DNA of 60,287 nucleotides from Candidatus Kapaibacterium sp. (lineage in GTDB: Bacteria; Bacteroidota; Ignavibacteria; Kapaibacteriales; UBA2268): NCBI GenBank assembly GCA_032027125.1, contig JAVSMQ010000001.1, positions 1,234,242 through 1,294,528 on the forward strand, in the 5' to 3' direction. The notes below the pieces were generated by a model, which was given only the letters and a program-made list of their open reading frames with translations, did no database searches and had not been told where the DNA came from. The position numbers and the translations under genes are program-made. Shown here piece after piece: positions 2,282-26,401 of the stretch. How positions within the stretch are numbered: the stretch's first letter is position 1; each line of letters starts with the position of its first letter.

Positions 2282-5200
2282 ATGAAAAAATTATTATTTA
2301 TAAGTCTTGTAATAATATCTTTGTTTATAACTCAAATGAGTATTTTTGCTCAAACGAGATTTATCAGCTATCAGGGCAATATCCTTGATCAACAGGAAAA
2401 GCCATTTGTGGGTACCCATCAAATGACTTTCGAAATGTACGATAGAGAGTTTGGGGGGAATCAGATTTGGAGCGAAATACAGAACGTAGCGTTCTTTAAT
2501 GGTTATTTCAATGTTTACCTTGGTTCAACCACTCCATTTAATCAATCATTTAATTTTAACCGTGAAATTTGGCTTCAGGTAACTGTCGGTAATTCTGTTC
2601 CTTATACGAGAACGAATTTGACAATGGTTCCTTCATCATTTTTCGCACAAAAATCGGCATTATCCGGTATAGCAGATTCAGTTGTTTTGAAAGCTATCAG
2701 GATAGAAAATTTGGCTGATGAAGTTATCACGATGGGTGGAGATTTAACCGGATTTTTACCAAATCCGAAAATTAGAGCCGGAGCTTTACTGGAAAGCATT
2801 GCTGACGGTTCAATTACTCAGAAAATGCTTTCGCCGAATGTTACTACCAGACCAAGTGGACCGGCAAGCGGAGATTTGACAGGATTTTATCCTGACCCTG
2901 TTATTGCAAAGGGAGCTGTTAAGACAGACCGTATCTTTGACAGAGCCGTTACTTATGAGAAGCTACAAGATGCTTTGGGTCCCATTGGAACTATGATTAG
3001 ATGGGATGGTACTAAATGGGTGGAAACATTAATTGGTGATTGGGAGAGAGGAAGACTTTCTGATGTCAAAGGTATTGATGGATTATATGCCACTACTGTT
3101 GCAGACTCAAACAATTTCCTCACTACCAGTGTTGGTATGCTTGATAATGGCGTTACAAGCAGCAAAATTGCCGATAGAGCAGTTACATATAATAAATTGC
3201 AAAATGCTGCCGGATTAGCCGGTACATTTTTAGCATGGAACGGAACAAATTGGGTTGAATCTTCTATATCACAGTGGGAAGCTGACGGTGTAATCGGTAA
3301 TGAGATTCTCAATGCTACACCAAACCGTGGTTTAGTAAGAGCCGGTGCAGGTACTTCTGCAAGCCCCTACACTTTGGGTATTGATCCAAACGGCAATTTC
3401 ACAGCAGGAATAATTACTGCTAATTTAATTGGTAATGCTACAACTGCAACAAGTACAGTTAATTTCACAGGCAATCTTGCAGGTGATGTAACAGGTCCGA
3501 TGGGTGCTACCGTTATTGGTGCTAACAAAATAGTAACAGGAATGATAGTTGACGGTACTGTACTTCCGGCTGATCTTTCAACAGGAATTTATGGAATAGA
3601 TATTTCCGGCAATGCTGCGACTGCTACAATATCCACGAATTCTACAAATGCTGTTAACTTCACAGGTAATCTTGCAGGTGATGTAACAGGTCCGATGGGT
3701 GCTACAGTTATTGGTTCAAACAAAATTGTAACAGGAATGATAGTTGACGGTACAGTCCTTCCGGCTGATCTTTCAGCAGGAGTATATGCAATTGACATTT
3801 CAGGAAATGCTGCTACTGCTACTTTATCAACTAATTCAACAAATGCTGTAAATTTCACAGGCAATCTTGCCGGTGATGTAACCGGTCCAATGGGTGCTAC
3901 AGTTATTGGTTCAAACAAAATTGTAACAGGAATGATAGTTGATGGTACAGTACTTCCGGCGGATCTTTCAGCAGGAACTTATGCAATTGATATATCAGGA
4001 AATGCTGCTACTGCTACTTTATCAACCAACTCTACAAATGCTGTGAACTTCACAGGCAATCTTGCCGGTGATGTAACCGGTCCAATGGGTGCTACAGTAA
4101 TCGGTGCAAACACAATTGAAACAGGAATGATTGTTGATGGTACTGTACTTCCGGTTGATCTTTCAGCAGGAATATATGCAATTGACATATCAGGTAATGC
4201 GGCTACTGCTACATTATCAACCAATTCAACAAATGCAGTTAATTTCACAGGCAATCTTGCCGGTGATGTAACCGGTCCGATGGGCGCTACAGTAATTGGT
4301 GCAAACACTTTAGTAACAGGAATGATTGTTGACGGTACAGTCCTTCCCGCTGACCTTTCAGCAGGAGTATATGCAATTGACATTTCAGGCAATGCAGCTA
4401 CTGCTACTAATTCAACAAATGCCGTAAACGCAGTTAATTTCACAGGCAATCTTGCAGGTGATGTAACCGGTCCGATGGGTGCTACAGTAATCGGTGCAAA
4501 TAAAATAGTAACGGGAATGATTGTTGACGGTACAGTACTTCCGGCTGATCTTTCAGCAGGTACTTATGCTATTGACATTTCAGGCAATGCTGCTACTGCT
4601 ACTTTATCAACTAATTCTACAAACGCTGTAAACTTCACAGGCAATCTTGCCGGTGATGTAACCGGTCCAATGGGCGCTACAGTAATTGGTGCTAATAAAA
4701 TAGTAACAGGTATGATTCTTGACGGAACAGTACTTCCGGCTGATCTATCAGCAGGAACTTATGCAATTGATATATCAGGCAATGCGGCGACTGCTACTTT
4801 ATCAACAAATTCTACTAATGCTGTTAATGCAGTTAATTTCACAGGCAATCTTGCCGGTGATGTAACCGGTCCGATGGGTGCAACTGTTATTGGTGCAAAT
4901 ACAATAGTAACAGGAATGATTGTTGATGGTACAGTACTTCCAGCTGATCTTTCAGCAGGAACTTATGCAATTGACATATCAGGCAATGCTGCTACTGCTA
5001 CTAATTCTTCAAACTTCACAGGCAATCTTGTAGGTGATGTAACCGGTCCAATGGGCGCTACAGTTATTGGTGCTAATAAAATAGTAACAGGAATGATAGT
5101 TGATGGTACAGTACTTCCGGCTGATCTTTCAGCAGGAACTTATGCAATTGACATTTCAGGCAATGCAGCTACTGCTACTTTGTCAGCTAATTCAACAAAT

Positions 5201-6745
5201 GCTGTAAATGCTGTAAACTTCACAGGCAATCTTGCCGGTGATGTAACAGGTCCAATGGGCGCTACAGTAATTGGTGCAAACACAATAGTAACAGGAATGA
5301 TTGTTGACGGTACAGTACTTCCAGCTGATCTTTCAGCAGGAACTTATGCAATTGACATATCTGGAAATGCTGCTACTGCTACTTTATCCACCAATTCTAC
5401 AAATGCTGTAAATGCAGTAAACTTCACAGGCAATCTTGCCGGTGATGTAACCGGTCCGATGGGTGCTACAGTAATTGGTACAAACAAAATAGTAACAGGT
5501 ATGATAGTTGACGGAACAGTACTTCCGGCTGACCTATCAGCAGGTACTTATGGAATAGATATTTCCGGCAATGCTGCTACTGCTACTTTATCAACCAACT
5601 CTACAAATGCTGTGAACTTCACAGGCAATCTTGCAGGTGATGTAACCGGTCCGATGGGTGCAACAGTAATCGGTGCTAACAAAATAGTAACAGGAATGAT
5701 TCTTGACGGTACAGTACTTCCGGCTGATCTTTCAGCAGGTACTTATGCAATTGATATATCAGGAAATGCTGCTACTGCTACTTTGTCAGCTAATTCTACA
5801 AATGCTGTAAACGCAGTTAATGCTGTAAATTTCACAGGCAATCTTGCCGGTGATGTAACAGGTCCAATGGGCGCTACAGTAATCGGTGCAAATAAAATAG
5901 TAACGGGAATGATTGTTGACGGAACAGTACTTCCTGCAGATTTATCGGCAGGTACTTATGCAATTGATATATCAGGCAATGCAGCAACAGCTACATTGGC
6001 AGCAAATTCAACAAATGCAACCAACGCAGTAAACTTCACAGGCAATCTTGCAGGTGATGTAACAGGTCCGATGGGTGCAACAGTAATTGGTGCAAACACA
6101 ATAGTAACAGGAATGATTGTTGACGGAACAGTACTTCCTGCAGATTTATCGGCAGGAACTTATGCAATTGACATATCAGGTAATGCTGCTACAGCTACTT
6201 TGTCAACTAATTCAACAAATGCTGTTAAAGCAACAAATTTAATTGGAGCAGGTTCGACAACAAATGCAGTTGATTTACAAACTGCTGAAGTAGCCGGCTC
6301 ATTAGCAGATGCGAATGTTGACAATAATTTGACAATTGATGCCGGAACTATCAATAATACCCCAATAGGTTCTGTTACGCCGAGCACAGCTGCATTTACT
6401 TCAGCCGTCATATCAAATAATTCAGCAGTTACACCTACACTATTAATATCAAATGCTGATGTTTCTGATGCAAGCGTAGCTTTAAGATTAAATGGCGGTG
6501 CTATCGTTTTGAAAACAGTTGATGCAGCCGGCGTTGCAGATTTATCAAATTATGGATATGCAAATATTATTAAAATCAATACTGCACCTACTGCACTTCC
6601 AATAGGAGTAGAAGGACAAATAATACATATATATAACTATGCAGTTGGTGCTTTGACTTTTGCGGGTGTTTCAGTTGCCCCTTCTAAAATATTTACATTT
6701 GTATGGATAGGTGGAGCTGTTAACGCCTGGATAGAAGTTCTCTAA
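2282..6745 (+). CDS. Large secreted fibre/adhesin-like protein with 14 tandem ~65-aa repeats
   Basis: Signal peptide, ISYQG.I.D...WSE.Q...GYFNVYLG N-domain, repeats NFTGNLAGDVTGPMGATVIGANKIVTGMIVDGTVLPADLSAGTYAIDISGNAATAT; variation between repeats is mostly synonymous. Confidence 0.85.
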   Translation: MKKLLFISLVIISLFITQMSIFAQTRFISYQGNILDQQEKPFVGTHQMTFEMYDREFGGNQIWSEIQNVAFFNGYFNVYLGSTTPFNQSFNFNREIWLQVTVGNSVPYTRTNLTMVPSSFFAQKSALSGIADSVVLKAIRIENLADEVITMGGDLTGFLPNPKIRAGALLESIADGSITQKMLSPNVTTRPSGPASGDLTGFYPDPVIAKGAVKTDRIFDRAVTYEKLQDALGPIGTMIRWDGTKWVETLIGDWERGRLSDVKGIDGLYATTVADSNNFLTTSVGMLDNGVTSSKIADRAVTYNKLQNAAGLAGTFLAWNGTNWVESSISQWEADGVIGNEILNATPNRGLVRAGAGTSASPYTLGIDPNGNFTAGIITANLIGNATTATSTVNFTGNLAGDVTGPMGATVIGANKIVTGMIVDGTVLPADLSTGIYGIDISGNAATATISTNSTNAVNFTGNLAGDVTGPMGATVIGSNKIVTGMIVDGTVLPADLSAGVYAIDISGNAATATLSTNSTNAVNFTGNLAGDVTGPMGATVIGSNKIVTGMIVDGTVLPADLSAGTYAIDISGNAATATLSTNSTNAVNFTGNLAGDVTGPMGATVIGANTIETGMIVDGTVLPVDLSAGIYAIDISGNAATATLSTNSTNAVNFTGNLAGDVTGPMGATVIGANTLVTGMIVDGTVLPADLSAGVYAIDISGNAATATNSTNAVNAVNFTGNLAGDVTGPMGATVIGANKIVTGMIVDGTVLPADLSAGTYAIDISGNAATATLSTNSTNAVNFTGNLAGDVTGPMGATVIGANKIVTGMILDGTVLPADLSAGTYAIDISGNAATATLSTNSTNAVNAVNFTGNLAGDVTGPMGATVIGANTIVTGMIVDGTVLPADLSAGTYAIDISGNAATATNSSNFTGNLVGDVTGPMGATVIGANKIVTGMIVDGTVLPADLSAGTYAIDISGNAATATLSANSTNAVNAVNFTGNLAGDVTGPMGATVIGANTIVTGMIVDGTVLPADLSAGTYAIDISGNAATATLSTNSTNAVNAVNFTGNLAGDVTGPMGATVIGTNKIVTGMIVDGTVLPADLSAGTYGIDISGNAATATLSTNSTNAVNFTGNLAGDVTGPMGATVIGANKIVTGMILDGTVLPADLSAGTYAIDISGNAATATLSANSTNAVNAVNAVNFTGNLAGDVTGPMGATVIGANKIVTGMIVDGTVLPADLSAGTYAIDISGNAATATLAANSTNATNAVNFTGNLAGDVTGPMGATVIGANTIVTGMIVDGTVLPADLSAGTYAIDISGNAATATLSTNSTNAVKATNLIGAGSTTNAVDLQTAEVAGSLADANVDNNLTIDAGTINNTPIGSVTPSTAAFTSAVISNNSAVTPTLLISNADVSDASVALRLNGGAIVLKTVDAAGVADLSNYGYANIIKINTAPTALPIGVEGQIIHIYNYAVGALTFAGVSVAPSKIFTFVWIGGAVNAWIEVL
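3461..6227 (+). repeat. Intragenic tandem repeat, 14 units of about 177-213 bp (mode 195 bp)
   Basis: 14 occurrences of NFTGNL(A/V)GDVTGP; unit length varies in steps of 9 bp. Confidence 0.95.
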
Positions 6746-6838: not shown

Positions 6839-7084
6839 GAATTTTAGCTGTATGTCAATTGAGAAATTTATTTTGAAATTTTGTGTAGCAATACAGTTTT
6901 CAGATGATTTTTTGGGAATACATCAGAGAGGATTCAACAAGTCATTAGGACCTTTCTTTAAAATGCTTTACGATTCAAAGAATTAATTATGCTCATATAT
7001 AAGAAGATAAATCCGGTTATTTATTGAAAATGCCAAATTGATAATCAAAGTTGATAACTAAACTCCATTTATCAAACAAAACTT

Positions 7085-7753
7085 TTATTTTAATTCAGTT
7101 TGGGCAGTATTTGTAATTCCAAATAAATCGTATGGTTTTTCCACAAATTTATCATTGAATAAATAAACAGTAAGGACAATATAAGCAATAAAACCCAATA
7201 CAATAACCAACTGTGCAAAACTGGTTTTTTGAATATTCTGTCTGTCTTTTATTACGCAGACTTCTCCCGGGCAGTATTGGGCTTTTTCTTTATAAATCAA
7301 AGAATATACTTTACAGCCGATACATATACCGAAAGCAGATTCAAAAAACAGAAATACCAAGCAAATTAAACAGATAATACCGGTAACAGGGCTGAATGAA
7401 TTTACTACTACCTGAAGAATTAACATTGTAAATGCCAAAACAATACCGATAATCCAGGCAAACTTTTTTTGCTGTGCACCGACATACTCCGGTACCTGAT
7501 TACGAACTATCCAACGACCTAGGATCAAAGATGGTGCGAATTTCGGATTTATAAATACTCGGATTAGAATATCAGTCAGAAAGATTACTATTGCATACTT
7601 AAGAAATGTGAAATCCTGATGCCCTCCTGCCTGATTTATAGCGATGAACATCATTACAAACAAAATACCTGCTCCTGCTCTGATTTCACGTTCATTTAAC
7701 ACGGGTATGTTATACCCTTCGACATTTTCACCGAATTGAAATATTTTTTCCAT
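7085..7753 (-). CDS. DUF4395-family membrane protein
   Basis: LNEREIRAGAGILF, PEYVGAQQKKFAW, FESAFGICIGCKVY motifs. Confidence 0.8.
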   Translation of the reverse strand: MEKIFQFGENVEGYNIPVLNEREIRAGAGILFVMMFIAINQAGGHQDFTFLKYAIVIFLTDILIRVFINPKFAPSLILGRWIVRNQVPEYVGAQQKKFAWIIGIVLAFTMLILQVVVNSFSPVTGIICLICLVFLFFESAFGICIGCKVYSLIYKEKAQYCPGEVCVIKDRQNIQKTSFAQLVIVLGFIAYIVLTVYLFNDKFVEKPYDLFGITNTAQTELK

Positions 7754-7837
7754 TTTTTGTTTTCCTAAAAAGTGTTATTTTAAAAAACTGTTATTAATAA
7801 ACTTTGTTAAAATCAAGTTATTAAATTTCAATTATAA

Positions 7838-7966
7838 TCATTCAATTTCGCATAAGATATATAATGAATTATAACAGGACATTTCATTGCAACTTTCTTT
7901 AGTTCCTGCCTGCTTTCCGGTTATGACTTTTTCAATAATCTTAGTTTTTGTTGAATCATTTTTCAT
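7838..7966 (-). CDS. Possible 42-aa peptide (MKNDSTKTKII...KESCNEMSCYNSLYILCEIE)
   Basis: Manual translation; ATG start just downstream of a promoter-repeat copy with AGGA upstream; three Cys. Confidence 0.3.
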   Translation of the reverse strand: MKNDSTKTKIIEKVITGKQAGTKESCNEMSCYNSLYILCEIE

Positions 7967-8103
7967 AAAATTGTTCCTAACTCATTTATTTACGTTAACA
8001 AAATAAATAAGTTGCAAGATTATGTAAATATTGATTCCAACAAATAAAAAAATATCCTTTACTTATGAAAAGATACTATAAAACTCAATTTTAGAGGATG
8101 GGA

Positions 8104-8523
8104 TTACTTGAAAATCAAAACAGCAAGTACGACAATAGTCAGACTGATTAATAAAGAAATTTTACCTAGCGGCTCGATTTTTTTCATACTTGTCTCAAAA
8201 TCTCCTTTTTTCGCTTCCTTTGCTTTTATACTTATGACAACAATTATTATTGTTAAAACCAGTACCAATGATAGTTTAGCAATAAGCAGGGGTGTTATGG
8301 ACAGCAAACTCCAATAGGGTGTCATTAAATATCCGCCGGAAAGAATCAACAACGCTAAACCAATGTGTCCCATTTTACTTAATGTCATAACATTTAATCT
8401 GAATTTCTGTGATTCGGTTTTCTCCATTTTTGAAGCTGCAATTCCAAGGAACAAGAAAGCAAAACTTGTTCCGACACCCATTGCCAAGCCAAGAAAATGG
8501 ACTATTAACATAACATTTCTCAT
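8104..8523 (-). CDS. Four-TM membrane protein (CopD/DUF2269-like)
   Basis: HFLGLAMGVG...GLALLILSGG...AKL.LV hydrophobic pattern. Confidence 0.7.
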   Translation of the reverse strand: MRNVMLIVHFLGLAMGVGTSFAFLFLGIAASKMEKTESQKFRLNVMTLSKMGHIGLALLILSGGYLMTPYWSLLSITPLLIAKLSLVLVLTIIIVVISIKAKEAKKGDFETSMKKIEPLGKISLLISLTIVVLAVLIFK

Positions 8524-8784
8524 AATTTTTCTCTCGTATATTTAGTATAATTAAAAATAAAATTAGACAACACAATATTTATCTTTCAAACTCATAATAA
8601 AAGATATGCAAAACTATGAAAATATTGAGAATATACCAAACAAAAAGATGAACATAGCATCATGAAATTTTCTTAGGAGTATATTATATTACGTGGGGTA
8701 GAAAAATAATCAAAAAAAAGTACAAAAATTCAATTAAACATAAGATATAAAATCAAAGTTATTATGTTATTTGAAAACCTCAAT

Positions 8785-8934
8785 TTATGCAATTTTGATT
8801 TTTCCTTCTCTGACTTGCTTTAAGAATATTTTCTGTTCTTCCAAAGTCATATCTACCATTTTTTCAGCAAGTTTTTCCTTGATTAAACGGAAATATTTAA
8901 CTGTGTCAAACTTTTTTTCATTCATTGTTTTCAT
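8785..8934 (-). CDS. Small 49-aa protein of the type found downstream of PIN toxins (orphan antitoxin-like)
   Basis: Manual translation MKTMNEKKFDTVKYFRLIKEKLAEKMVDMTLEEQKIFLKQVREGKIKIA; overlapped by an upstream stub EFHSPKEFINYENNE*. Confidence 0.6.
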   Translation of the reverse strand: MKTMNEKKFDTVKYFRLIKEKLAEKMVDMTLEEQKIFLKQVREGKIKIA

Positions 8935-8989
8935 AATTAATAAACTCCTTAGGTGAATGAAACTCTTATTGAAAGTAACCTTTTTTCAT

Positions 8990-9517
8990 TTATAAAAATG
9001 CACTTTTATTTTTCTTAATATAATCCATGTTTAATGAATTTAAATCATCTTCATAAACAAAGAATTTCTGGTCAAGCTCATCCCAAATCTCATTTGCAAT
9101 TTCTTCAATTAGTGATAGAATCTCTTGTCTTGTAATTCTATCCTTTGGTACAGTTTTATCAGGGAACTGGTCATTTGCTTGTTCGACTAACTTTGCAGTC
9201 TTGTTCGCCCCAATTTTTCTTAATGAATCAATTGTTTCATGAGCAAAATCACCTGCTGAATTAATGTAGAACTGATTAAATCCACCATTATTAATCTCTC
9301 TTTCCAAATTTTGGTTATAGTAAAAATACTTTTGGGGGTCAGTTAATTTATCTAAACAATTACCATATTCACAAAGCTCCGAAATATAATTATTCAGTTC
9401 AATTATACTTCTGTTTATATTATCCGAGTTTATCAACTTATCAATATCAGGTTTTGTATTTCCTGAGTAATCATCTGATTTGACAGAGCCACCAAATATT
9501 TTTTTAAATATATTCAT
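8990..9517 (-). CDS. DUF4375/DMP19-family protein
   Basis: LEREINNGGFNQFYINSAG...L.KIGA...LDQKFF.YE.DL signature; start placed at MNIFKK. Confidence 0.85.
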   Translation of the reverse strand: MNIFKKIFGGSVKSDDYSGNTKPDIDKLINSDNINRSIIELNNYISELCEYGNCLDKLTDPQKYFYYNQNLEREINNGGFNQFYINSAGDFAHETIDSLRKIGANKTAKLVEQANDQFPDKTVPKDRITRQEILSLIEEIANEIWDELDQKFFVYEDDLNSLNMDYIKKNKSAFL

Positions 9518-9604
9518 AATATTCCAGTTTTTTTGGTTGTACATAACTGCTATGTGAAAGAAACGTGGGTTTGCGGACGATTCCGCATTAAGTCACAATG
9601 AAAA

Positions 9605-9859
9605 TTAATCAAATGGTTCTTTGGGAAGTATATTTAAACTTCTAACATATCGCTCATTATCATAAGGCTTATCAAATTTCAAAACATTAAATATCTCAAC
9701 AGCCACACATTGTCCAATCATTTGTTTAGTTTGAAAATCATCAAATCCCTGCTTTAGCAATCTTTCATAAGTTGATATTGTCTCAGGCGGGTCGTTAAGC
9801 CTAAGTTGATTTTCGATTATCTCAAAAATCTTTTCTCTCAATTTTTCATTTGTTTCCAT
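9605..9859 (-). CDS. Conserved hypothetical protein
   Basis: IENQLRLNDPPET..TY.RL...G motif; clean 84-aa ORF. Confidence 0.75.
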   Translation of the reverse strand: METNEKLREKIFEIIENQLRLNDPPETISTYERLLKQGFDDFQTKQMIGQCVAVEIFNVLKFDKPYDNERYVRSLNILPKEPFD

Positions 9860-10046
9860 ATTTCAGAGTTTTATTAGTTTACGAAATATTTCATTTATCT
9901 ATGACCACTCAATAAATATATTTTACAAAATTAGGAAAATATTGAGAATATTCCAAACATAGATTTGATAATTCAGTAAATCTGAATTTTTTCAATTTTC
10001 ATTTGTTTTCACAGAAAGTGTCAGTTTTAATTTCTTTATAAAATCA

Positions 10047-10099
10047 GTAGTGTGCTGAATGTAAGCCTCAGCAGGAGTTACCGGTAATCAGCACACTAC
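10047..10099 (-). terminator. Inverted repeat / likely terminator after the protease gene
   Basis: gtagtgtgctga ... tcagcacactac 12-bp perfect arms. Confidence 0.55.
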
Positions 10100-10129
10100 A
10101 TTAAAAGATAATTGTATAATGAAGTGGTT

Positions 10130-11161
10130 CTACATTATCTGTTCAGCCACCTCAACCTTCAGCAGCGAGCGAACATTCTCAATCTGGTTAATAATAGTTG
10201 CGACAGATGAACCTGCAAAGAGCAGTCCAACTGCAATATCATCCAGAGTTGTTATAAGTGAACCCGAGTCTCCACCGGCAGACATATTGGTTGTGATGAT
10301 TTGGTCCTTAAACCTTGCTACCCTTCCGCTGCCATAATTAACATCCACAGTTGCATTGACTGCTGTGATTCTGCCTGTAGTGTAGTTCGTTGTTCTTCCC
10401 GTCTTTTGAACAATCGTACCTACAGTCACTTTAGATTTGGGTTTCCAGCCCCGCACGTAACCTGTCCAATAGATTTCCCTGTCAAGGTCGTGGAACTGTC
10501 CTTCGGCAACTGCAGCATCAACGAGATTGTTTTGGAGTGCAAGAGGAACAGTTGGTGTAAACGCTATTGGTATAAACCGGCTCAAACGTGCGATTCGGTC
10601 AGCCGGATCTACACCGCCATCGTACGGTCCGGGCTGTAGGATTGGGTCGCCGAGTGAAGCATCGTTACTGTTTGCCAAAACATGGTTGTTACTGAGAATG
10701 TAGTACTTGGCAGGGATCCCGACTCCGGGTTGTGGTATAATATCATAAACACAGGTGGCTATAGTACCTGCAGTAATTTTATAATGTCCCACGCTGTACC
10801 CTCCTTCAGCCGGACGGCTGCGTTTTGTAAGAGTCTGTATGCCTGTATTCAGCGGTTCGCTGCCTCCTGCAAAAGGATAACCGACTTCAAGTACGTCGGT
10901 TTGCATATCAGCCAATTTCGTAGGAACAAGGTCACCTTTACTAACCTGATTCTTGTCCAGCTTCTGGTTAACCAATACAACCAGTGCAGGCTCACCTGTG
11001 GGCTGTCCGTTTTTCCATTTAACGCCGACTCCCATACCGACTACATTTCCAGAGCCTCTTTTCACAGGGTCTAAAAAAGCTTCAACACTTGCTGTGTGTG
11101 CTTTTTGTGCCTCTGCCATTGCCGGTTCTGACAATGTCATTTTCTTCACATCCAAAGTCAT
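10130..11161 (-). CDS. Trypsin-like (S1) serine protease, NAL1-like
   Basis: Triad motifs LSNNHVLA, VDAA, GDSGS; V.KTGRTT.YT.G; N-terminal GVGVG.K...V.V..K...TDV domain; no signal peptide. Confidence 0.85.
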   Translation of the reverse strand: MTLDVKKMTLSEPAMAEAQKAHTASVEAFLDPVKRGSGNVVGMGVGVKWKNGQPTGEPALVVLVNQKLDKNQVSKGDLVPTKLADMQTDVLEVGYPFAGGSEPLNTGIQTLTKRSRPAEGGYSVGHYKITAGTIATCVYDIIPQPGVGIPAKYYILSNNHVLANSNDASLGDPILQPGPYDGGVDPADRIARLSRFIPIAFTPTVPLALQNNLVDAAVAEGQFHDLDREIYWTGYVRGWKPKSKVTVGTIVQKTGRTTNYTTGRITAVNATVDVNYGSGRVARFKDQIITTNMSAGGDSGSLITTLDDIAVGLLFAGSSVATIINQIENVRSLLKVEVAEQIM

Positions 11162-11178
11162 GATTATTCCTCCGTTTG

Positions 11179-11406
11179 TTATAAAATTTGTGCCTCTACG
11201 ACACCTATTTCTTTCACATCAGTTTCATATCCATCTAACTTTTTCGGAACAATATCTTTAAGAAGTAAAGCTGACTCAGCAACCTTATGGGTTACAAATA
11301 CCACAATGACTGCCTTACCTGCTTTCTCTCCAATGCCTACTCCGGTTACATTGGGCAGACTCATAAGCCGTTCCTCGTTTTTCTCTTTTACTGAATCAAT
11401 ACTCAT
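11179..11406 (-). CDS. Stand-alone homologue of the protease N-terminal domain
   Basis: NVTGVGIGEK...IVVFVTHKV...IVPKKL.GYETDVKEIG aligns by eye with NVVGMGVGVK...LVVLVNQKL...LVPTKL.DMQTDVLEVG; GGAGG SD before MSIDSV. Confidence 0.75.
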   Translation of the reverse strand: MSIDSVKEKNEERLMSLPNVTGVGIGEKAGKAVIVVFVTHKVAESALLLKDIVPKKLDGYETDVKEIGVVEAQIL

Positions 11407-11706
11407 CTTAGTACCTCCTTTATACAAAAACGGAATATTATTCATAAAATTTAAACTACAGTCGGTGAAATCATCAAAAAAACGTTTATCATACTTATTA
11501 ACAAATTCTCAAAAAATATCATTTAAAAATATAATTATTTTCAAAAAAAAACAAGTAATATATTGTAATTAATAATATTTTTTGAACGAAATATATATTT
11601 AATAAACCTTGTTATATTTACTATTTATTAAATCAAAGATTTTAAATATACATAAGAAAATAACCTGCAATTTAATATTGCCCGTTAACAACTGAATATA
11701 TTTAAA

Positions 11707-13029
11707 TTAATGCACTTCTGCCCAGCCAAAACCTTTTACATTTGTTACTTCAAAGTCATTTACATAAATATCAGCTTTTATATTAAATACTCCTTCATAT
11801 TTTTTTACCGCACTTACAACCTGATTGTTATTTATTGCTTCACCGTAAATAACTGTTGATTTACCGTTAGGCACACTTAATGTGAGTTTGAATTTTACAG
11901 GATAATTTTCCCAATACTCAATTACTTCAAATTGTATGTTATTCATAGACCACTCAAATGCTGCCAGACGTGAACCGTTTTCATTTTTCTTGCTGTGGTA
12001 CGGGTCATCATAATAAAAATGTGCCATTGAAAGTGTACTAATTTCGCCTGATGCATCTTTGACCTCAACAATCGAAATCATCATAGCTGCCTGAATCCCA
12101 TAATAACCTTCGATTTCGGGAAATTGCAGTGCAAAAAACTGCCAGGTTGCCGAACCCAAAACCGGAAGGCTTTCAGCATTAAAACCCTGAACTACATAAT
12201 CAATCCACATATTTCCTTTTGTACCGGAAAAATAGGGCTTTCCGTTTTTTATAATATTGAAATGTTCTACTTTCAATAAAGGGATTGTGAAGTAATAGGA
12301 ACCTTGTCCGGTCATATCATCCTGCGACTGCTCCAAATATTTGTTCACATCACTATTATACTTATCATTAATTATATCGCGTTGGTTTTTGTTAAGCCAT
12401 TGAGGAAGAAACGATGATGGTCCATATCCAACCTGAATTGTTCCGAATGTATCAGTCATTTCAAGTTCGTATTCCCACTCGTCAAGCAAGTCCGGTTCAG
12501 TAATCACACGACCTGTCATCCGGTATTTTGCACCTGCTTCTCCCATTCGTCCTGAAAAGAGGGTGAGACTTATTAAACCTCCGTATATAGGATTAGCATC
12601 AACAGTTATCGCAAAAGGACTGGAATATTCAACGTTATTTTCATTTTCCAAAATGAATGGAGCCAGAACATACCCTTTTGTCTGTTCATCACAATACGAC
12701 CATTCTGCAATGTATGGAGGTTGATTAGGCATTATTTGATATTGTACTATACTGCTAATTGCTGCGGTTATACCGTTATCATCCGTAATATTACCAAAGA
12801 AACACCACGAACTCATATTATACCGCGGGTGATATTTGGAAAACCAACCGGCTAATTGTTCAGGGCTCTGACCAGGTGGTAAAATTGCTTTTGAACTATA
12901 AAAGTTCTGAATTGTCTCATTGCCGATCGGCAGGCTTTTTATATCATTTTTGAGTTTTTTCAATGCCTGTTTAATGTCGGTAGAAACGACTTTTTCGGTA
13001 TGTAAAAGGTATCGGAAAATCTTGTTCAT
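11707..13029 (-). CDS. Lipocalin-like / AttH-CrtC (hydratase-like) domain protein
   Basis: SSWCFFGNI, SYYFTIP, GNMWID, WQFFALQ, YEG and G.GWAE resemble AttH/CrtC-family motifs; start placed at MNKIFR. Confidence 0.55.
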   Translation of the reverse strand: MNKIFRYLLHTEKVVSTDIKQALKKLKNDIKSLPIGNETIQNFYSSKAILPPGQSPEQLAGWFSKYHPRYNMSSWCFFGNITDDNGITAAISSIVQYQIMPNQPPYIAEWSYCDEQTKGYVLAPFILENENNVEYSSPFAITVDANPIYGGLISLTLFSGRMGEAGAKYRMTGRVITEPDLLDEWEYELEMTDTFGTIQVGYGPSSFLPQWLNKNQRDIINDKYNSDVNKYLEQSQDDMTGQGSYYFTIPLLKVEHFNIIKNGKPYFSGTKGNMWIDYVVQGFNAESLPVLGSATWQFFALQFPEIEGYYGIQAAMMISIVEVKDASGEISTLSMAHFYYDDPYHSKKNENGSRLAAFEWSMNNIQFEVIEYWENYPVKFKLTLSVPNGKSTVIYGEAINNNQVVSAVKKYEGVFNIKADIYVNDFEVTNVKGFGWAEVH

Positions 13030-13205
13030 AATGCCTCTTGTTAAAAATTTTACTGGAAACAGCTTTTGGTCAAAACACATTAAAATTACTTACAAATTTA
13101 GCGAATTATTTAATGCAATCCAAACAAAATAAATAGGCATGACTATGAAGGTGAGATTAGGTAGTTAAGACCTTTTAACTGAAAACTATTTTAGTATTTC
13201 CAAAT

Positions 13206-13514
13206 TTATTCAAAATCGTAATTTCTTTTTTCTATTGGAATCTGCTTAACTTTTGCAATATTATCTAAAATCTTATCAAAAGTTTTATTTAATCTTGTCA
13301 AGCTTGGAAATGTTTCAAAAAAGATATCTTCTAAATCTTCCCTGCCAGCATTTTTTAATTCATTTATTAAAAGAATTGATTTATCAATATATTCTTCTTC
13401 GTCATTGCATTCATCTGCCAGTAATCCGAATTGTAAAGTCAAATCGTGATTAAATTTCTTAGATTCGGTCATAATAGCCCGGTATGTCTCATTTGATAAA
13501 TTATCAGTATCCAT
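13206..13514 (-). CDS. Hypothetical protein
   Basis: 102-aa ORF, MDTDNLS.ETY.AI...HDLTLQFGLL. Confidence 0.7.
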   Translation of the reverse strand: MDTDNLSNETYRAIMTESKKFNHDLTLQFGLLADECNDEEEYIDKSILLINELKNAGREDLEDIFFETFPSLTRLNKTFDKILDNIAKVKQIPIEKRNYDFE

Positions 13515-13543
13515 TTAAAAATATTTATCCGTTTTTTGTAAAT

Positions 13544-14026
13544 TCATTCTTTTTCACGTATTTTATCTATAACCCAAGGTATAATAGTATCAAATTCGAT
13601 TTGAACTAATCCTTGTATATCATTAAAAAAAGTTAAATCGTTTGCTTCAGAAAATCCAATTGAGAAATTATCCGCAATCGTTGTCAAATCGAATGTGAAT
13701 CCACCGTTAGGTAAGGAAACCCTACAATCTTTACCTTTTAAAATTTTTCCTTTAAAATGAAACCATCCGCTAATATTATGAAATCCATTGAGAAGGGTCT
13801 CAAAACTCATAATTTCAATTTCTTTTTTATAATCTATACCTACATCTATAAATAATTTTAAAATCTCATTCGGAAATATTTTGTCTCTATAGGCAATATA
13901 ATTTTTACATTCATTACATATACATAAATCTGCTCCACTTTCTTTAATCTGTGAATACGTATCCAATGTTAATTGTTTATCAAACTCAAATGTCCAATCA
14001 CGATATGTAAGTGTTCTAATTTTCAT
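13544..14026 (-). CDS. Hypothetical protein with CxCxxC motif
   Basis: CICNECKNY...G.D..KE.E...GWFHFKG...IPWV. Confidence 0.75.
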   Translation of the reverse strand: MKIRTLTYRDWTFEFDKQLTLDTYSQIKESGADLCICNECKNYIAYRDKIFPNEILKLFIDVGIDYKKEIEIMSFETLLNGFHNISGWFHFKGKILKGKDCRVSLPNGGFTFDLTTIADNFSIGFSEANDLTFFNDIQGLVQIEFDTIIPWVIDKIREKE

Positions 14027-14062
14027 CTTTTTGTCAATAATTATCCATAAAACAATTTTTGC

Positions 14063-14506
14063 TTAGTATGACGCAAAACCAGTGTTAGGCATCGTTTTAT
14101 TCTTTTTCAGTTTTTTAATCAATGTTTTTCCAATATACACAAATATCAAATAAGGTATGAATATTAGATATCCGAAAATTGCCTTAATTGGCCAACCAAT
14201 TCCCATAATACTGGTTTCAAGGCTTTTCACTTGCTCCATGTTCTCAGGTGAAACATTTCTATAAAATTCTGTTTCGCTCATTCCATCCATATTGTATCCA
14301 TAGTGTTTTAGTAAAATCAAATCTGATTCATAGCTATACCAAGCAAAAATCATCGCCAGAATTCCATGTACAAACAAGCTAATCATGGAATATAAAATCA
14401 AAGTCCGTTTGGCTTTTAATCTGTTTAGTATGATAAGAAGTAAAATCGGAGACGCAAGGAGTAATCCAAAAATCAGAAAGTTTGTTATTGTTATTAATGA
14501 CTCCAT
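14063..14506 (-). CDS. Hypothetical membrane protein in an integron-cassette-like unit
   Basis: Three hydrophobic segments; bracketed on the coding strand by GTTAGGC (14546-14552) and GCCTAAC (14084-14090). Confidence 0.7.
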   Translation of the reverse strand: MESLITITNFLIFGLLLASPILLLIILNRLKAKRTLILYSMISLFVHGILAMIFAWYSYESDLILLKHYGYNMDGMSETEFYRNVSPENMEQVKSLETSIMGIGWPIKAIFGYLIFIPYLIFVYIGKTLIKKLKKNKTMPNTGFASY

Positions 14507-14688
14507 ATCAATCAATTCGTATTTCGATGTTGTTTTTAAAATGAGGCCTAACAATTATTTTGACGCAATAAGTAAAATTATATTTAATAAAATATTTGTA
14601 AATGCTTGGGCTCCAAAAACTCACTTATCTACATTCTTTCAACAAATGATTTACAAACTTACCAGATTTTAATAATCTGCAAAATAAG

Positions 14689-15006
14689 CTAAGCAATTAC
14701 GATTTCAATCCCGGTCTTTTCAATTTCACGGGCAAAAGGATTTTGTGAAATAAAATCTTTATTTGATATTGGATGCGGCTCAATACGGGTATCAAATTCA
14801 GAAGCTAATATTAATAACTGAACCTGCATCTCAAATTTATCTGAATCCTCTAAATTATTCATTATGAAAGCAATGTCAATATCACTATCAACAACCTGTT
14901 TATTTTTGGCATAAGAACCAAATAAATAAACTTTTGCCAAACTATTAAAATTTTCTGCTACCTTTTGTATGTATGGTCTTACTGAATTAAAAATTTCATT
15001 ATCCAT
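14689..15006 (-). CDS. Minimal nucleotidyltransferase (MNT) antitoxin
   Basis: YLFGSYAK...DSDIDIA motif; overlaps the HEPN gene. Confidence 0.9.
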   Translation of the reverse strand: MDNEIFNSVRPYIQKVAENFNSLAKVYLFGSYAKNKQVVDSDIDIAFIMNNLEDSDKFEMQVQLLILASEFDTRIEPHPISNKDFISQNPFAREIEKTGIEIVIA

Positions 15007-15386
15007 TCTCTGTTTTCCTTAATTTTTTCTATCCAGAAGGAAGTATATTCATAAGTACATTTTTGCTTAAAACTCATTTTGTAATCATCGTAGCGTGTGT
15101 TAATATTAAATGCTGTTACGGTAGCAAAAAATAATTTCTTATCATCTGATAAATCTAAATTATTCAATTCGGCAAGTCTTAGTAGATTATGTATAAACGG
15201 AGGATGTGCATTATGAATCTTGATATAAAGAGCTTTTAATAACTTCTCAACAGATAAATGCCCCACAAATAATGCAAAGCTATATCTATTATTCTCAAAA
15301 AGTGTCATCATAGTTTCAAAATCATCATCAGAACTTGTAATCCAATAATCTAAATACTTCTCAATATTAAAATCTTTATCTGGCAT
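14979..15386 (-). CDS. HEPN-domain protein (HEPN-MNT TA)
   Basis: ALF.GHL.VEKLLKA...PPFIHNLLRL...RY motif. Confidence 0.9.
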   Translation of the reverse strand: MPDKDFNIEKYLDYWITSSDDDFETMMTLFENNRYSFALFVGHLSVEKLLKALYIKIHNAHPPFIHNLLRLAELNNLDLSDDKKLFFATVTAFNINTRYDDYKMSFKQKCTYEYTSFWIEKIKENREWIMKFLIQ

Positions 15387-15760
15387 TTTTTGACGAATAA
15401 GTTAAACATAAATAAATTTACGTAAATACGGTCTGTTTATTATTAATGTCTATTTGAATTTTGATAAAATGATATACATTTACCTACATCATCTCAATAA
15501 ATGATTTACAAACTTACCAAATTCTTAAATACAATCCAAACAAAAAAGATGTCTTGTACTTTAAAAATGAAACTCTTCTAATTCAAAACTTCAAACTAAG
15601 AACTAAAAACTATTTAAGAATTTCCAAATCTTATAAAAATTCGCTGATTTTAATTTGGGTTGGGATTTTAGTTTACATTTTGACACATTATAAAGAATCA
15701 GACTTCTGAGAACTGAACCTTCTACAATAAAACAATAATACGAAAAATGCAAATGTGCTA

Positions 15761-16429
15761 TTAGCGGTAATTTATTCTTCTAATTTCATCTATCTCTGCA
15801 AAATCCTTCTTTAATACAAGTACTCCAAACGGGGTCATCCCAATACAATATTTTAGTCCACTGGCTTGCTCTACATATAACATCACATACCCGGTCTTAT
15901 AAAAAATAATATCGCCACTTTTTAGAACATTTGTTCGTTCTAATTGATTTCTTAGCTCTTGTTTTGATAGTGAGTTAGAAGATAAATATCTATTATTATA
16001 CAACACATAATTCATCATTGAAGGAGAGTCAAATCCAATATTCGGATCTCTACCACCTAACCTAAACTTAACTCCCCGCTCTTTTAGTTCAAAAATGGAA
16101 CTCAGAATAGCTGTAACTCTTGGTTGTTGTGAATAGAGAAGTTTTATATCCATAAATGTAAGATTAATACTTTGACCAACAAATTTATTGGCTTCTGATA
16201 ATCTTGTCTCTAAATCAAGAACTCTTTGCTGACTTTCAATAATCTTAACATTCAGTTCAATAGCTTCTTTTTCTAATTTACCAACTTCACGGGCTGTCCA
16301 AAGAAGCCATACAAATCCAATCAGGATAGGAATAATTGTGTAAATAATCACTCTACGCCTTGCTTTCTTTTCTTTGATAAGAATTGAATTGTAGAGACTA
16401 TTTAGATTGATATTTGCTTCATTTTCCAT
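15761..16429 (-). CDS. Membrane-anchored coiled-coil protein with a degenerate NlpC/P60-like domain
   Basis: TM + coiled coil, then F.LGG.DP..GFDSPSMMNYV and LKSGDIIFY..GYVMLY, versus canonical GFDCSG and PGDLVFF..HVGIY. Confidence 0.6.
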   Translation of the reverse strand: MENEANINLNSLYNSILIKEKKARRRVIIYTIIPILIGFVWLLWTAREVGKLEKEAIELNVKIIESQQRVLDLETRLSEANKFVGQSINLTFMDIKLLYSQQPRVTAILSSIFELKERGVKFRLGGRDPNIGFDSPSMMNYVLYNNRYLSSNSLSKQELRNQLERTNVLKSGDIIFYKTGYVMLYVEQASGLKYCIGMTPFGVLVLKKDFAEIDEIRRINYR

Positions 16430-16431
16430 CT

Positions 16432-16755
16432 TTATAACTTTTCCAAAATTTTATTAAATAATGTACTTTCTATAGAAGTATTATTATTAATATTTGATAT
16501 CAAATATTCTAAATCTAAAATCTTATCTTTTCTTTTTGATTTTTCGCCTTGAAGATACAACGGAACGACAAGATTAATAAGACCAAATCCATATTTGGCA
16601 TATTCAATTATAACCTTTTCATTCAAAGAAGCAGTAATTGGCAATATTAGAAAACATATTCCGATTATAATCAAAGAAATTGATAAAATATTAAATGTTC
16701 TGATACTGCCATTTAATATCTTAATTCGTGATTCTATGTATTCTTTACTGTTCAA
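16432..16755 (-). CDS. Two-TM hypothetical protein
   Basis: Two hydrophobic helices; TTG start; ends 2 bp before the next gene. Confidence 0.6.
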   Translation of the reverse strand: MNSKEYIESRIKILNGSIRTFNILSISLIIIGICFLILPITASLNEKVIIEYAKYGFGLINLVVPLYLQGEKSKRKDKILDLEYLISNINNNTSIESTLFNKILEKL

Positions 16756-17061
16756 ATTGCAATCAATATTCTAAAAACTAAAGCACAATTCACGATTTTT
16801 CTAATAAACAAAATTGAATTTAGCTGAATGAAAATTTTCTTGAACAATTGTATAAACGCAATGAGCAAAATAATATTTAACAAAATATTTGTAATTGCTC
16901 TTATTCAAATACTATATCACTTATCTACATCCCTTCAATAAATGATTTATAAAATTAATCAAAATTCAATTATCTTTTGAATAATAACCGATTTGATTTG
17001 GAGCCAGATTCTATCTATAAGAACAGTCCTCATTTATCATCATTTAGTAGCAACTCAATTA

Positions 17062-17742
17062 TTAGTAAATAAAAGGGATTAATGAATAAGTTGATTTCTT
17101 ATATTCATCCCATTCATCTTTAAATTCAATTCTCAATAATTCTTCCTCATCTTTAATTCTCCAAAGTATTACACCGATTACAAATAAATCAAGTATTAAG
17201 GGAATGATAGAGACAAATGTAATTGGAATTCCAACTATGAAAACAATAATCCCTAAATATCTTGGATGTCTTATTATACCATACGGACAATTTTTAATTA
17301 ATTTATGATTATCCTGAATTGTTACGTTTAGACTAAAATGCTTTCCTAAGACAATTATTGACCAATTCATGAAGAAAAAACCAATAATCGAAAAAAGTAA
17401 TCCGATAAGTCGAATATAATCATTATCACTAAACGTAAAAATACTATATCTGTCAAAATATGGTGAAAAAATCATTATAAGAATTGGGACAATCTGCAAA
17501 GTTAAAATTGTGAATTTTTGTCGTTTGACTAATTTCTTTTTATCACCATCCCCAAAACCACGACCTTCATTTGGAACAAAAATTACCACTAAAAAAGTTG
17601 AGAATGTCATTATCACTAAAAATGCCATCCGGTAAAAATTTCCAAAATAGCCATCTAAATCTGAAATACCCCATCCCAAAATTGGTAACAAAACAAAAAT
17701 TACTATTCCGACTAAAAATGATATTATTTTTTTCATAATCAA
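17062..17742 (-). CDS. Isoprenylcysteine carboxyl methyltransferase (ICMT/PEMT) family membrane protein
   Basis: LGKHFS...HKLI...PY.IIRHPRYLG...RI..EE..L...F..EW..Y. Confidence 0.9.
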   Translation of the reverse strand: MIMKKIISFLVGIVIFVLLPILGWGISDLDGYFGNFYRMAFLVIMTFSTFLVVIFVPNEGRGFGDGDKKKLVKRQKFTILTLQIVPILIMIFSPYFDRYSIFTFSDNDYIRLIGLLFSIIGFFFMNWSIIVLGKHFSLNVTIQDNHKLIKNCPYGIIRHPRYLGIIVFIVGIPITFVSIIPLILDLFVIGVILWRIKDEEELLRIEFKDEWDEYKKSTYSLIPFIY

Positions 17743-17986
17743 AACCTTTTACTTTTTGTAAATCTGATTTTTTTTGCATATATAGTAACAATTTTAAACG
17801 GAATTTTATTTATATTATTTTAATACAAGCTCTATTAGAAACTCTCTGCGATGGCATTAATAGACTGAAATAATATTAATAAATCAATCTCACTTATCTA
17901 CATCATCTCAATAAATGATTTACAAATTTAAATAAAAATGAGCAGTTAATCAAAGAACTCACAGGAATATTATTTGTTTATAGTTT

Positions 17987-18020
17987 ATTCATCCGATGAC
18001 TTAGAGCCATCGGATGAGTA
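17987..18020. terminator. Palindrome after hom (terminator or REP)
   Basis: ttcatccgatg-acttagagc-catcggatgag. Confidence 0.55.
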
Positions 18021-18033
18021 TTATAAAAAAAAA

Positions 18034-19230
18034 CTAAAACCTCGGCTCACCTACATTTCGGATTATAGAAATTTCATTATCTTTGAAAATATCGGAACTG
18101 ATAAGTTTCTCAAAATTGATTTCACCTTTGATATAGTGATATTCCGGCGAACTGTATGTTTCCCTTATAAAGCTGAATAATGATAAATCGAAATTGTGCG
18201 ATGCCGGAAATCTCACATAAACATCAATTGTAAAGTCATTACTCAGTTTTGATGTGTGATTCTGATAATATTTCTTGTACTCGTATTTGTAATCATAAGT
18301 TAGAGCCGAAATATCAGAAAGGACTGCCGAACCGGTTGGCAAACTTCCTGCCCCCTTTCCATAAAAAAACTGATTTTCCGAAAAGAAACTTTCAACTTTT
18401 ATACCGTTGAATTCATAATCAACATTGAAAAGCGAACTTGATTTTTCAACGAATTTCGGCAGCACAAATGCGTAAATATTTGAACCGACTTTTCGGCAGT
18501 ATGCTACAAGTTTGATATTAAATCCTTTTTCCTTTGCGTATGTAATGTCAAAATCGTTTATACGGGATATACCGAGATTATAAATTTGTTCCGGTTTGAC
18601 AATATGTCCGAAAGTATGCGCCAGTAAAATGCAGAGCTTATATTTCGGGTCGTAACCTTCTATGTCAAGTGTCGGGTCAGTTTCCAGAAAACCGTTGACC
18701 CTTGCAATTTCGAGTGCAGCATTGAAATCCACATTTTCATTAAATACTTTTGTCATAATGTAATTTGTCGAGCCGTTGAAAATACCTTCAACCGAATTGA
18801 GTAAATCGTTATCATAATATTCTTCGAGATTACGTATAATCGGAATAGAAGCACAGCACGAAGCCTCATAGAGCAAAGCTGAATTATATTCTTTCTGCAG
18901 ATGAAACAATTCCTCAAAATGTTCTGCCACCATTTTTTTATTTGCCGTAACAACTTTTTTGCCGGACTTCAAAGCGCGCGTTACAATTTCATAAGCTGCT
19001 TCGGGGTCGTCAATCAGTTCAACTACAACATTTATTTCAGGATTATTCAGAATTTCATCACGGTCGAAAGTGAAATAATCCATCGGTATACTTCTTTCTT
19101 TTGAGCGGTCTTTCACGCATATTTTAACAATTTCAGCCTTCATTCCTTTCGTCTGCTCAAGAACATTGAAAAGCCCTTGTCCTACACATCCGAATCCGAA
19201 AATTCCCAACTTTATTTTATTTCTCTGCAT
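18034..19230 (-). CDS. hom: Homoserine dehydrogenase
   Basis: GFGCVG, VVTANK, YEASC.ASIPII, GIFNGSTNY, E.DPTLDIEG.D, GKGAG.LPT.SAV. Confidence 0.95.
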   Translation of the reverse strand: MQRNKIKLGIFGFGCVGQGLFNVLEQTKGMKAEIVKICVKDRSKERSIPMDYFTFDRDEILNNPEINVVVELIDDPEAAYEIVTRALKSGKKVVTANKKMVAEHFEELFHLQKEYNSALLYEASCCASIPIIRNLEEYYDNDLLNSVEGIFNGSTNYIMTKVFNENVDFNAALEIARVNGFLETDPTLDIEGYDPKYKLCILLAHTFGHIVKPEQIYNLGISRINDFDITYAKEKGFNIKLVAYCRKVGSNIYAFVLPKFVEKSSSLFNVDYEFNGIKVESFFSENQFFYGKGAGSLPTGSAVLSDISALTYDYKYEYKKYYQNHTSKLSNDFTIDVYVRFPASHNFDLSLFSFIRETYSSPEYHYIKGEINFEKLISSDIFKDNEISIIRNVGEPRF

Positions 19231-19273
19231 TTTTATTTTCCTTATTTTCTATTCTATATAGTTTAGTTAAATA

Positions 19274-19333
19274 GTTACCCTGAGCTTTGCCGGAAGGTGC
19301 AACAATTTGTCCTTCGAGTTTGCTCAGGATGAT
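19274..19333. repeat. REP-like palindrome pair (GTyAyCCTGAGC...CGAAGG type)
   Basis: gttaccctgagctttgccggaagg ... ccttcgagtttgctcaggatgat form an imperfect inverted pair. Confidence 0.65.
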
Positions 19334-19410
19334 ATTCTTACAATTTTTCATTGATTGGATTACTTTGTTTTCAAAATAATTATGTCAAACCACCAAATTT
19401 AAGCCTATGA

Positions 19411-20821: not shown

Positions 20822-20850
20822 CTATAAAATTATATTGATATCTCATCTTT

Positions 20851-20955
20851 CTTATCTATCTTCGGCATTTGTCGAAGCTGGAATTAGCACCTTAAACAAT
20901 TAAGTTTAGGTTGCTAAGACGTCTCAGGGCCAGTCCCTCAGTCTTTCTTGATAAG
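20851..20955 (-). promoter_or_regulatory. SAM-I riboswitch
   Basis: Minus strand CTTATCAAGA..GAGGGACTGGCCC.GA...GCAACC...GGTGCTAATTCC...GATAAG; upstream of met genes. Confidence 0.95.
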
Positions 20956-21150
20956 TAAAATTACAAAGAACAATATTCAAAAGTAAGAAAAATAATTATA
21001 ACAGCCAAATAAAATATTTCGTATCACCAATAAATTCACAATTAACAATACCACTCTTACATCCATATTCCGTGTATTCATAGTTGAATGAATTTCTCAC
21101 ACGCTTTTTCAAGATGCTGTTAAACATACGAACAACTGCAAAGAATGCAA

Positions 21151-25955: not shown

Positions 25956-26235
25956 TCTTTGTATTAATTCTGATATTCAGCAATTTTTCAAAAACATACC
26001 GCTTGAATTAAGATTATTTTGTAAAGCAGTTGTTTCACTTTTTATTACTTTTACAAACAATCTAAAGAATTACAATCATCGGTAAGATATTTTTGTTACT
26101 TTTTCACCAGTCTTCCAATTGGCTGATATTTATAGTCAGTAATATGTCAAATACTGTTTCCTTCTATTAAATGTAAATTATTGAATTCACACTACTTTCT
26201 TTAATAATTCGTTATCCGAATTTGAAAATATGAGT

Positions 26236-26319
26236 TCCGTTGGAGGTGCTGTATCCAAAAGATATGGCTGAGAGAGTCTCCTCGAACCTGATCCGGGTAA
26301 TACCGGCGTAGGGAAACGG
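26236..26319 (+). promoter_or_regulatory. TPP riboswitch
   Basis: GGAGGTGC...GCTGAGA...GAACCTGATCCGGGTAATACCGGCGTAGGGAA with ccgtt/aacgg P1. Confidence 0.95.
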
Positions 26320-26401
26320 TTGTGAATCATCCGCTTAGAATTTGCTCTCCTTATGACCCCACGGGAAACTCGAATTGTTGAATAAACTTAACGAGGTTTC
26401 T

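Follow-up and report, generated by a model that had tools for sequence, protein, structure and literature searches.

The window analysed here is a 60,287-nt stretch of a 4.53-Mb single-contig genome of Candidatus Kapaibacterium (33.6% G+C; G000 below), an uncultured bacterium; DNA of the window is also present in sediment metagenomes. The window carries several copies of a short repeated element, which we call the head, in which two boxes resembling a Bacteroidota promoter are followed by a conserved 29-nt hairpin. Heads stand before unrelated accessory genes, often in co-oriented arrays, and the modules that they precede differ between relatives. We give a probability of about one half to the reading that the head is a portable promoter-leader, that its hairpin acts in RNA and that the arrays are reshuffled by recombination between heads; taken by itself, such reshuffling probably occurs.

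Anatomy of the head and its copies in the window

On the coding strand every copy has the same order: a TTTG box, about 20 variable nt, a TAnnTTTG box, 4-7 variable nt, and a 29-nt segment that folds into a 9-bp stem with an 11-nt loop. Across 64 copies the second box and the hairpin were at least 90% conserved, while the spacer between the boxes varied. In the account given in PMC7366714, the Bacteroidota sigma-A promoter has TTTG at -33 and TAnnTTTG at -7, at a spacing of about 19-21 nt, and transcription begins a few nt after the second box. Both conserved boxes of the head would fit that promoter, as the original prediction from this DNA had proposed. The S-adenosylmethionine (SAM) riboswitch of the window has the same -33/-7 promoter type 22 nt upstream, which suggests that the organism uses such promoters. 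A sigma-70 promoter and terminator scan gave no enrichment, and no Rfam family reached the gathering threshold for heads or arrays.

Similarity between copies was limited to 40-135 nt, with a variable 5' edge and a sharp 3' edge directly after the hairpin. It had been claimed that conservation runs well past the -33/-7 boxes, for 30-100 nt beyond the latter; this held for about 35 nt, the hairpin part common to all copies, and a further 57 nt was found in only some of them. In about 10 copies a terminator-like hairpin with a T-run overlapped the -33 box. The distance from the conserved hairpin to the first start codon was about 13 to 196 nt.

We identified four clear and two diverged copies of the head in the window, with three more partial sites. 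A 20-nt core pattern, searched with up to three mismatches, matched at 14638, 15493, 16934 and 17907 (4 matches against 0.05 expected; 4 were reached in 0 of 100 shuffles), and so recovered all four of the clear copies originally reported at 14620, 15477, 16917 and 17889. The copies at 15477 and 17889/17891 do share an identical 29-nt core, both being exact matches. The diverged copies proposed earlier fared unevenly: those at 9891 and 535 are true members (9875-9960, nhmmer E 4e-11; 526-583, nhmmer E 7e-8), whereas those at 8576 and 13088 have the promoter part only, and that at 7981 has the stem with another loop. The heads of the window and the genes that follow them are listed below, where ORF denotes an open reading frame.

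17874-17965, minus: head copy A, with -33/-7-like boxes and hairpin (about 17890-17918); covariance model (66.1 bits), nhmmer
17062-17742, minus: cargo of head A, an ICMT/PEMT-family membrane methyltransferase of 226 aa (PF04140, 3e-13)
16901-16964, minus: head copy B; core pattern, nhmmer, covariance model
15761-16755, minus: cargo of head B, a 107-aa membrane ORF and a 222-aa NlpC/P60-like protein (Pfam)
15460-15550, minus: head copy C, with hairpin at about 15477-15504 and -33 box near 15536-15545; core pattern, nhmmer, covariance model
14689-15386, minus: cargo of head C, a pair of HEPN (135 aa) and nucleotidyltransferase (105 aa) genes (Pfam)
14605-14668, minus: head copy D; core pattern, nhmmer, covariance model
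14550-14606, minus: second leader module, 84% over 57 nt to 16843-16899, also in some copies elsewhere
13206-14554, minus: cargo of head D, a 163-aa membrane ORF, then 160-aa and 102-aa ORFs without a Pfam family
13083-13134, minus: promoter-like part without hairpin, 81% to 15499-15550 (nhmmer E 0.049), before a 457-aa ORF (11707-13080)
10130-11445, minus: trypsin-like protease (343 aa) and an 88-aa ORF (Pfam)
9875-9960, minus: head copy E, diverged; nhmmer, covariance model
8990-9859, minus: cargo of head E, an 84-aa ORF (weak DUF1841 match) and a 184-aa DMP19-family protein (Pfam)
8576-8650, minus: degenerate head, with only the promoter-like part resembling copy E (similarity to the 9891 copy)
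8104-8523, minus: CopD-like membrane ORF of 139 aa (Pfam), after the degenerate head at 8576-8650
7969-8044, minus: degenerate head, stem kept and loop different (nhmmer E 0.06), before a small ORF and then a DUF4395 gene (7085-7753)
526-583, minus: head copy F, outside the array first described (nhmmer E 7e-8)
2-421, minus: cation-efflux/HMA gene after head F (Pfam), continuing beyond the window edge

Taking ORFs of at least 80 aa as genes, we counted 15 between 7085 and 17742. All 15 lie on the minus strand and their Pfam families are unrelated, as had been noted; four have no Pfam family. The G+C content of this array is mosaic, ranging from 0.27 to 0.39 along its length.

Copies, cargo and module differences across genomes

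The check proposed with the original prediction, a profile built from the copies and run over the genome, returned 30 nhmmer hits at E 4e-7 or better, so that G000 has about 30 heads. They form clusters at 1,195-1,252 kb (16 copies, the right end of this cluster lying in the window), 1,841-1,844 kb (4) and 3,085-3,092 kb (3-4). In an ORF map of 1,190-1,256 kb, all 16 copies fell in gaps between ORFs, and each preceded an ORF of its own strand. By Pfam, cargo was of accessory type, unrelated and different from copy to copy. The arrays of G000 contain two ParE pairs, a MazF-like pair, a VapC-like pair and two HEPN-nucleotidyltransferase pairs; KilA-N, RhuM, DUF4304 and YhcG proteins; an Arr rifampin ADP-ribosyltransferase, an RHS fragment and an alpha/beta hydrolase; and a cation-efflux protein and DUF1801 (twice). 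Some of the solitary heads precede a type I-E cas3, the gene of a 1624-aa Mrr-NACHT protein and that of an RNaseH-like/IS66 fusion protein. The claim that one promoter-leader unit heads unrelated cargo was thus borne out, and the cargo was mostly strain-specific.

Some heads carry additional sequence. Upstream of four single heads (at 883,737, 3,874,044, 4,206,154 and 4,365,631) lies an additional common module of about 110 nt, which contains another promoter-like box, and these heads form a putative tandem-promoter subfamily; the genes behind three of them are cas3, the Mrr-NACHT gene and that of the RNaseH-like/IS66 fusion. Two heads are followed, at 1,195,073-1,195,273 and 1,197,608-1,197,793 (L001), by about 200 nt of leader that is rich in G+C and 80% identical, and an array of a relative, G001, has G+C-rich structured stretches between genes that are akin to it. 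Beyond the third array, 3,095,200-3,095,944 (L005) holds a 259-nt direct duplication (98%) with perfect palindromes of 34-44 nt.

Within one Kapabacteria-like family, a covariance model found the head in 11 of the 61 genomes sampled (10 of 55 genera), with 1 to 25 copies per positive genome, often arrayed. The relatives with heads are labelled Candidatus Kapaibacterium or Ignavibacteriae metagenome-assembled genomes (MAGs). In a class-wide sample of 100 other genomes, 97 of them from other families, none matched the model at E 1e-4. A phage collection gave no match and a plasmid collection only two weak AT-rich hits. Between genera, heads were 80-93% identical and orthologous genes 70-75%, a difference that points to strong constraint on the heads or else to their exchange among genomes. 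In another genus, four successive heads each stand before an ORF pair of toxin-antitoxin size, one of which includes a ParD antitoxin. Heads also turned up in L020, a contig of 4071 nt from a MAG with the label Acholeplasmataceae, and in L022 and L029, whose label is Hyphomicrobiales; as the head is family-specific and these labels are distant, the three are probably mis-binned. Two heads of L020 lie 220 nt apart with no ORF between them.

We compared modules between relatives using genomes and a metagenome run from another study (X5), which is about 93% identical to the window and whose evidence on strains comes mainly from one contig. That contig has an extra module of 798 nt between two copies of 15497-15547, a segment with the -33 box at one end and the hairpin's 5' arm at the other. 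On the same contig the end of the HEPN-nucleotidyltransferase module is joined through a head straight to the 160-aa gene, and the 163-aa gene is missing. Another X5 contig has 31 letters in place of 9944-11511, the protease module. On a larger scale, arrays in G000, G001, G002 and a genome of another genus, G052, follow the same 440-aa anchor gene and differ in their cargo. A blastn search of 6900-19400 against four same-genus genomes and G052 found matches only for the DUF4395 gene, the HEPN-nucleotidyltransferase pair, the adjoining homoserine dehydrogenase gene (hom) and the heads. Cargo between copies therefore differs among relatives, with junctions in or beside the head in X5 and in the anchor-gene arrays, as the idea of a gene-capture array had anticipated. 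For the further part of that idea, the head as the capture site, we saw no mechanism, circular intermediate or fixed crossover point.

The hairpin and the explanations weighed

On the preferred reading, the head would be an expression unit of about 75-110 nt, in some copies of which a hairpin like an intrinsic terminator would close the preceding module. Its sigma-A-type promoter would drive independent transcription of the accessory cargo that follows, made up of toxin-antitoxin pairs, defence systems and proteins of immunity-like or membrane type, and the hairpin, lying just after the -7 box, would come at the very 5' terminus of the mRNA. There it most likely acts in RNA, by stabilising the transcript or by being recognised by a family-specific factor. 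Heads repeat a 30-50-nt core in a single orientation, which would make them substrates for ordinary homologous recombination; this might delete, duplicate, excise and re-insert whole modules. The outcome would be integron-like variable arrays without a dedicated integrase.

The stem was paired in 91.8% of its alignment cells, compared with 37-51% when the partners were slid, and the hairpin alone folded at a mean of -4.8 kcal/mol (z -1.7, single copies). We analysed covariation in a set of 88 copies; transitions were counted in 86, drawn from about a dozen genomes. Transitions on one side of the stem kept pairing as G-U 90 times and broke it 15 times, numbers that count sequences and not independent events. 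The 5' arm was nearly invariant, and the 3' arm had A or G at three positions opposite an invariant U. The unequal arms agree with pairing of the coding strand, and so of the transcript, and accord poorly with a symmetric double-stranded operator. At 203 other consensus promoters of G000 no such hairpin was present and the fold energy after the -7 box equalled that of an upstream control segment, so we rejected a general habit of 5' hairpins after promoters. In an array of G001 (C7, L031), other promoters are followed by hairpins of different sequence at the same position; a start-site hairpin may therefore extend beyond this head family.

Several observations weigh against the preferred reading, the nature of the G-U counts among them. 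RNAalifold predicted no consensus structure. The covariation suggested as a check on the leader was weak, with 3 double changes, a number equalled by 91 of 500 shuffles, and with so little variation in the 5' arm, conserved structure and conserved sequence cannot be told apart. The promoter and the transcription start of the heads are themselves read from sequence. Seven copies are solitary, outside the arrays and before single loci such as cas3 and the Mrr-NACHT gene, and this agrees with an expression or regulatory role as well as with a capture role. The evidence for an extra module comes from one contig of one run, and three X5 joints have sides of just 44-47 letters, repeat included. Degenerate copies lose similarity at differing points of the hairpin, with no fixed crossover site. 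Finally, head similarity within and between genomes was 0.71 and 0.65 in the spacer and did not differ in the loop, and from so small an excess frequent gene conversion is not evident.

We consider it unlikely that the hairpin is instead a DNA site, the operator of a regulon bound by one transcription factor at the start site, with the arrays as ordinary defence islands; the factor would co-regulate defence and accessory genes, and selection for its binding would maintain the common sequence. An operator would suit the fixed position relative to the -7 box in all copies, the palindrome formed by the two arms, the identical loop variants in several genomes, and a head more conserved between genera than coding genes; that single loci such as cas3 and the Mrr-NACHT gene are also headed would likewise be expected of it. 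Its half-sites, however, are unequal, the 3' arm changing between A and G only where G-U pairing is kept opposite an invariant 5' arm; they are separated by 20 bp, and the loop lacks palindromic symmetry in its conserved 5' part. In five genomes the only genes that recurred next to arrays were the anchor gene and some toxin-antitoxin pairs, with no regulator gene among them, and the distribution is patchy among the 61 genomes, with many copies wherever the head is present.

Were the hairpin recognised in folded-strand form by an unlinked recombinase, in the manner of attC with IntI or of the Xer sites of plasmid modules, and were the modules true cassettes captured there, the sharp common 3' end of similarity directly after the hairpin, the apparently strand-specific pairing and the duplicated heads bounding the extra X5 module would follow, and the cargo (toxin-antitoxin pairs, Arr, DMP19) does recall chromosomal integrons. 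We regard such site-specific recombination as distinctly improbable nonetheless. G000 has six tyrosine recombinase genes (PF00589), all at least 76 kb from the arrays (the nearest, at 1,328,015, about 76 kb off the array end), and a single serine recombinase far from them; no tyrosine recombinase lies beside the arrays of G002, G052, G066 and G071. The description of the array as integrase-free therefore stands for the arrays examined, although a repeated 418-aa recombinase has copies 6-15 kb away from some single heads of G052. Nor do transposases track the head: Y1 transposases are missing from 5 of the 11 genomes with heads, and the IS66-like protein occurs in 2 of 61. The break points of degenerate copies vary, and a recombination site would not need the promoter-like boxes that always stand at a fixed distance from it. 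Least probable of all, to the point of being a slim chance, is a selfish miniature element with an outward promoter, of the kind of miniature inverted-repeat transposable elements, repetitive extragenic palindromic (REP) sequences or Correia elements, inserted independently upstream of genes while the cargo stays in place. The head resembles these in being multi-copy, patchy and confined to one family, with a slight within-genome signature in the spacer, but its 5' boundary is variable and the alignments showed neither terminal inverted repeats nor target duplications. Every copy in 1,190-1,256 kb is co-oriented with the next gene, copies cluster in arrays, the sequence inserted or deleted in X5 is module-sized and takes in cargo, and the Y1 transposase is unlinked to the motif.

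Other candidates were tried and rejected. As a mobiliser, a Y1/REP-associated tyrosine transposase (RAYT) is found in 41 of the 61 genomes of the family; its presence does not follow that of the head, it is not flanked by heads, and the single gene of G000 (868,763) has no head nearby. The RNaseH-like/IS66 DDE protein is too restricted for the same role, with the occurrence given above. Paralogues of NusG, considered for a recruitment site, are present in G000, G002 and G004, where they are unlinked to the heads and do not track them. A CsrA site was dismissed, as CsrA was not found in G000 and the loop triplet it needs is not conserved. The anchor gene is no recombinase; it encodes a P-loop protein like cyclic-2,3-diphosphoglycerate synthetase. 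The head does not mimic a CRISPR repeat either, the repeat of the type I-E array at 4,196,712-4,198,672 being unrelated.

Neighbouring features, known systems and meaning

At the end of the array, hom (18034-19230) had no match in the four same-genus genomes and a 75%-identical DNA match in G052. Towards the other side, two adjoining tandem-repeat blocks of 21 bp, with 11-12 units each, lie at 758-1393 within overlapping ORFs. A 1487-aa ORF (2282-6745) consists of about 14 repeats of 195-213 bp with weak matches to the Ig-like DUF4469, and metagenome runs show copy-number joints inside these repeats. The Rfam scan of the window gave three features:

20849-20957, minus: SAM riboswitch
26232-26331, plus: thiamine pyrophosphate (TPP) riboswitch
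29035-29108, minus: tRNA

The literature searched gave no description of this promoter-hairpin head. Its closest parallels begin with putative mobile promoters, described in PMC3575422 as highly similar promoter regions before non-homologous genes, within and across genomes. Near-identical upstream regions before non-homologous genes are found here too; unlike the elements as that account presents them, the conserved part of the head is mainly a structured leader downstream of the promoter-like boxes, and the heads form co-oriented arrays with strain-variable modules and cargo biased towards toxin-antitoxin and defence genes. The rAID-1 arrays of Bacteroidales are immunity-gene arrays defined, in the description at bioRxiv 10.1101/471110, by a conserved XerD-family recombinase at their head. 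So far as that description goes, the two systems belong to the same phylum-level group and are alike in layout: small accessory genes stand in long arrays of one orientation, with repeats in the intergenic sequences and a mosaic G+C content. Here no XerD-family recombinase is adjacent and the host belongs to another class; the likeness concerns organisation. The cargo of rAID-1 arrays is homologous to immunity genes against interbacterial toxins; in the cargo here Pfam assigned DMP19, DUF4304 and DUF1801 proteins, which are candidates at most for such genes.

Chromosomal integrons and integrase-less attC clusters are variable arrays of one- or two-gene modules, rich in toxin-antitoxin genes, with a structured element at each junction. 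The head arrays share with them small, variable modules and a repeated structured element at every junction. They differ in that no IntI lies beside the array, the repeated element is 5' of the gene, and the heads are alike in primary sequence and not in structure alone. Unlike integron cassettes, which are mostly promoterless, every head carries its own -33/-7 boxes, and the modules would be self-expressed. Correia or NEMIS (Neisseria miniature insertion sequence) elements are short repeats that supply promoters and place hairpins in the 5' ends of neighbouring transcripts; they carry terminal inverted repeats, are accompanied by target duplications and insert independently. The head, unlike them, has a variable 5' edge and no matching inverted ends, and its cargo moves along. 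It is also unlike REP/RAYT systems, as no Y1 transposase is linked to heads and its presence across genomes does not follow theirs.

A bolder view, which we offer as tentative and rather doubtful, is that the head serves as both expression signal and exchange point of an integrase-less analogue of integrons confined to one Kapabacteria-like family. Modules, each a hairpin-tagged promoter with a defence, toxin-antitoxin or immunity gene, would leave and re-enter arrays through the heads, the agent being host recombination or an unrecognised enzyme, and the 5' hairpin would allow one RNA-level factor to govern all of the cell's mobile defence genes, cas3 included.

If the preferred reading is true, integron-like variable arrays can be built and expressed without an integrase, with a repeated promoter-leader as the joint. 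The covariance model offers a sequence handle for listing mobile defence and toxin-antitoxin genes in a lineage of which little is known. A conserved 5' hairpin common to cas3, a NACHT protein and many toxin-antitoxin operons makes joint post-transcriptional control of defence genes a candidate.

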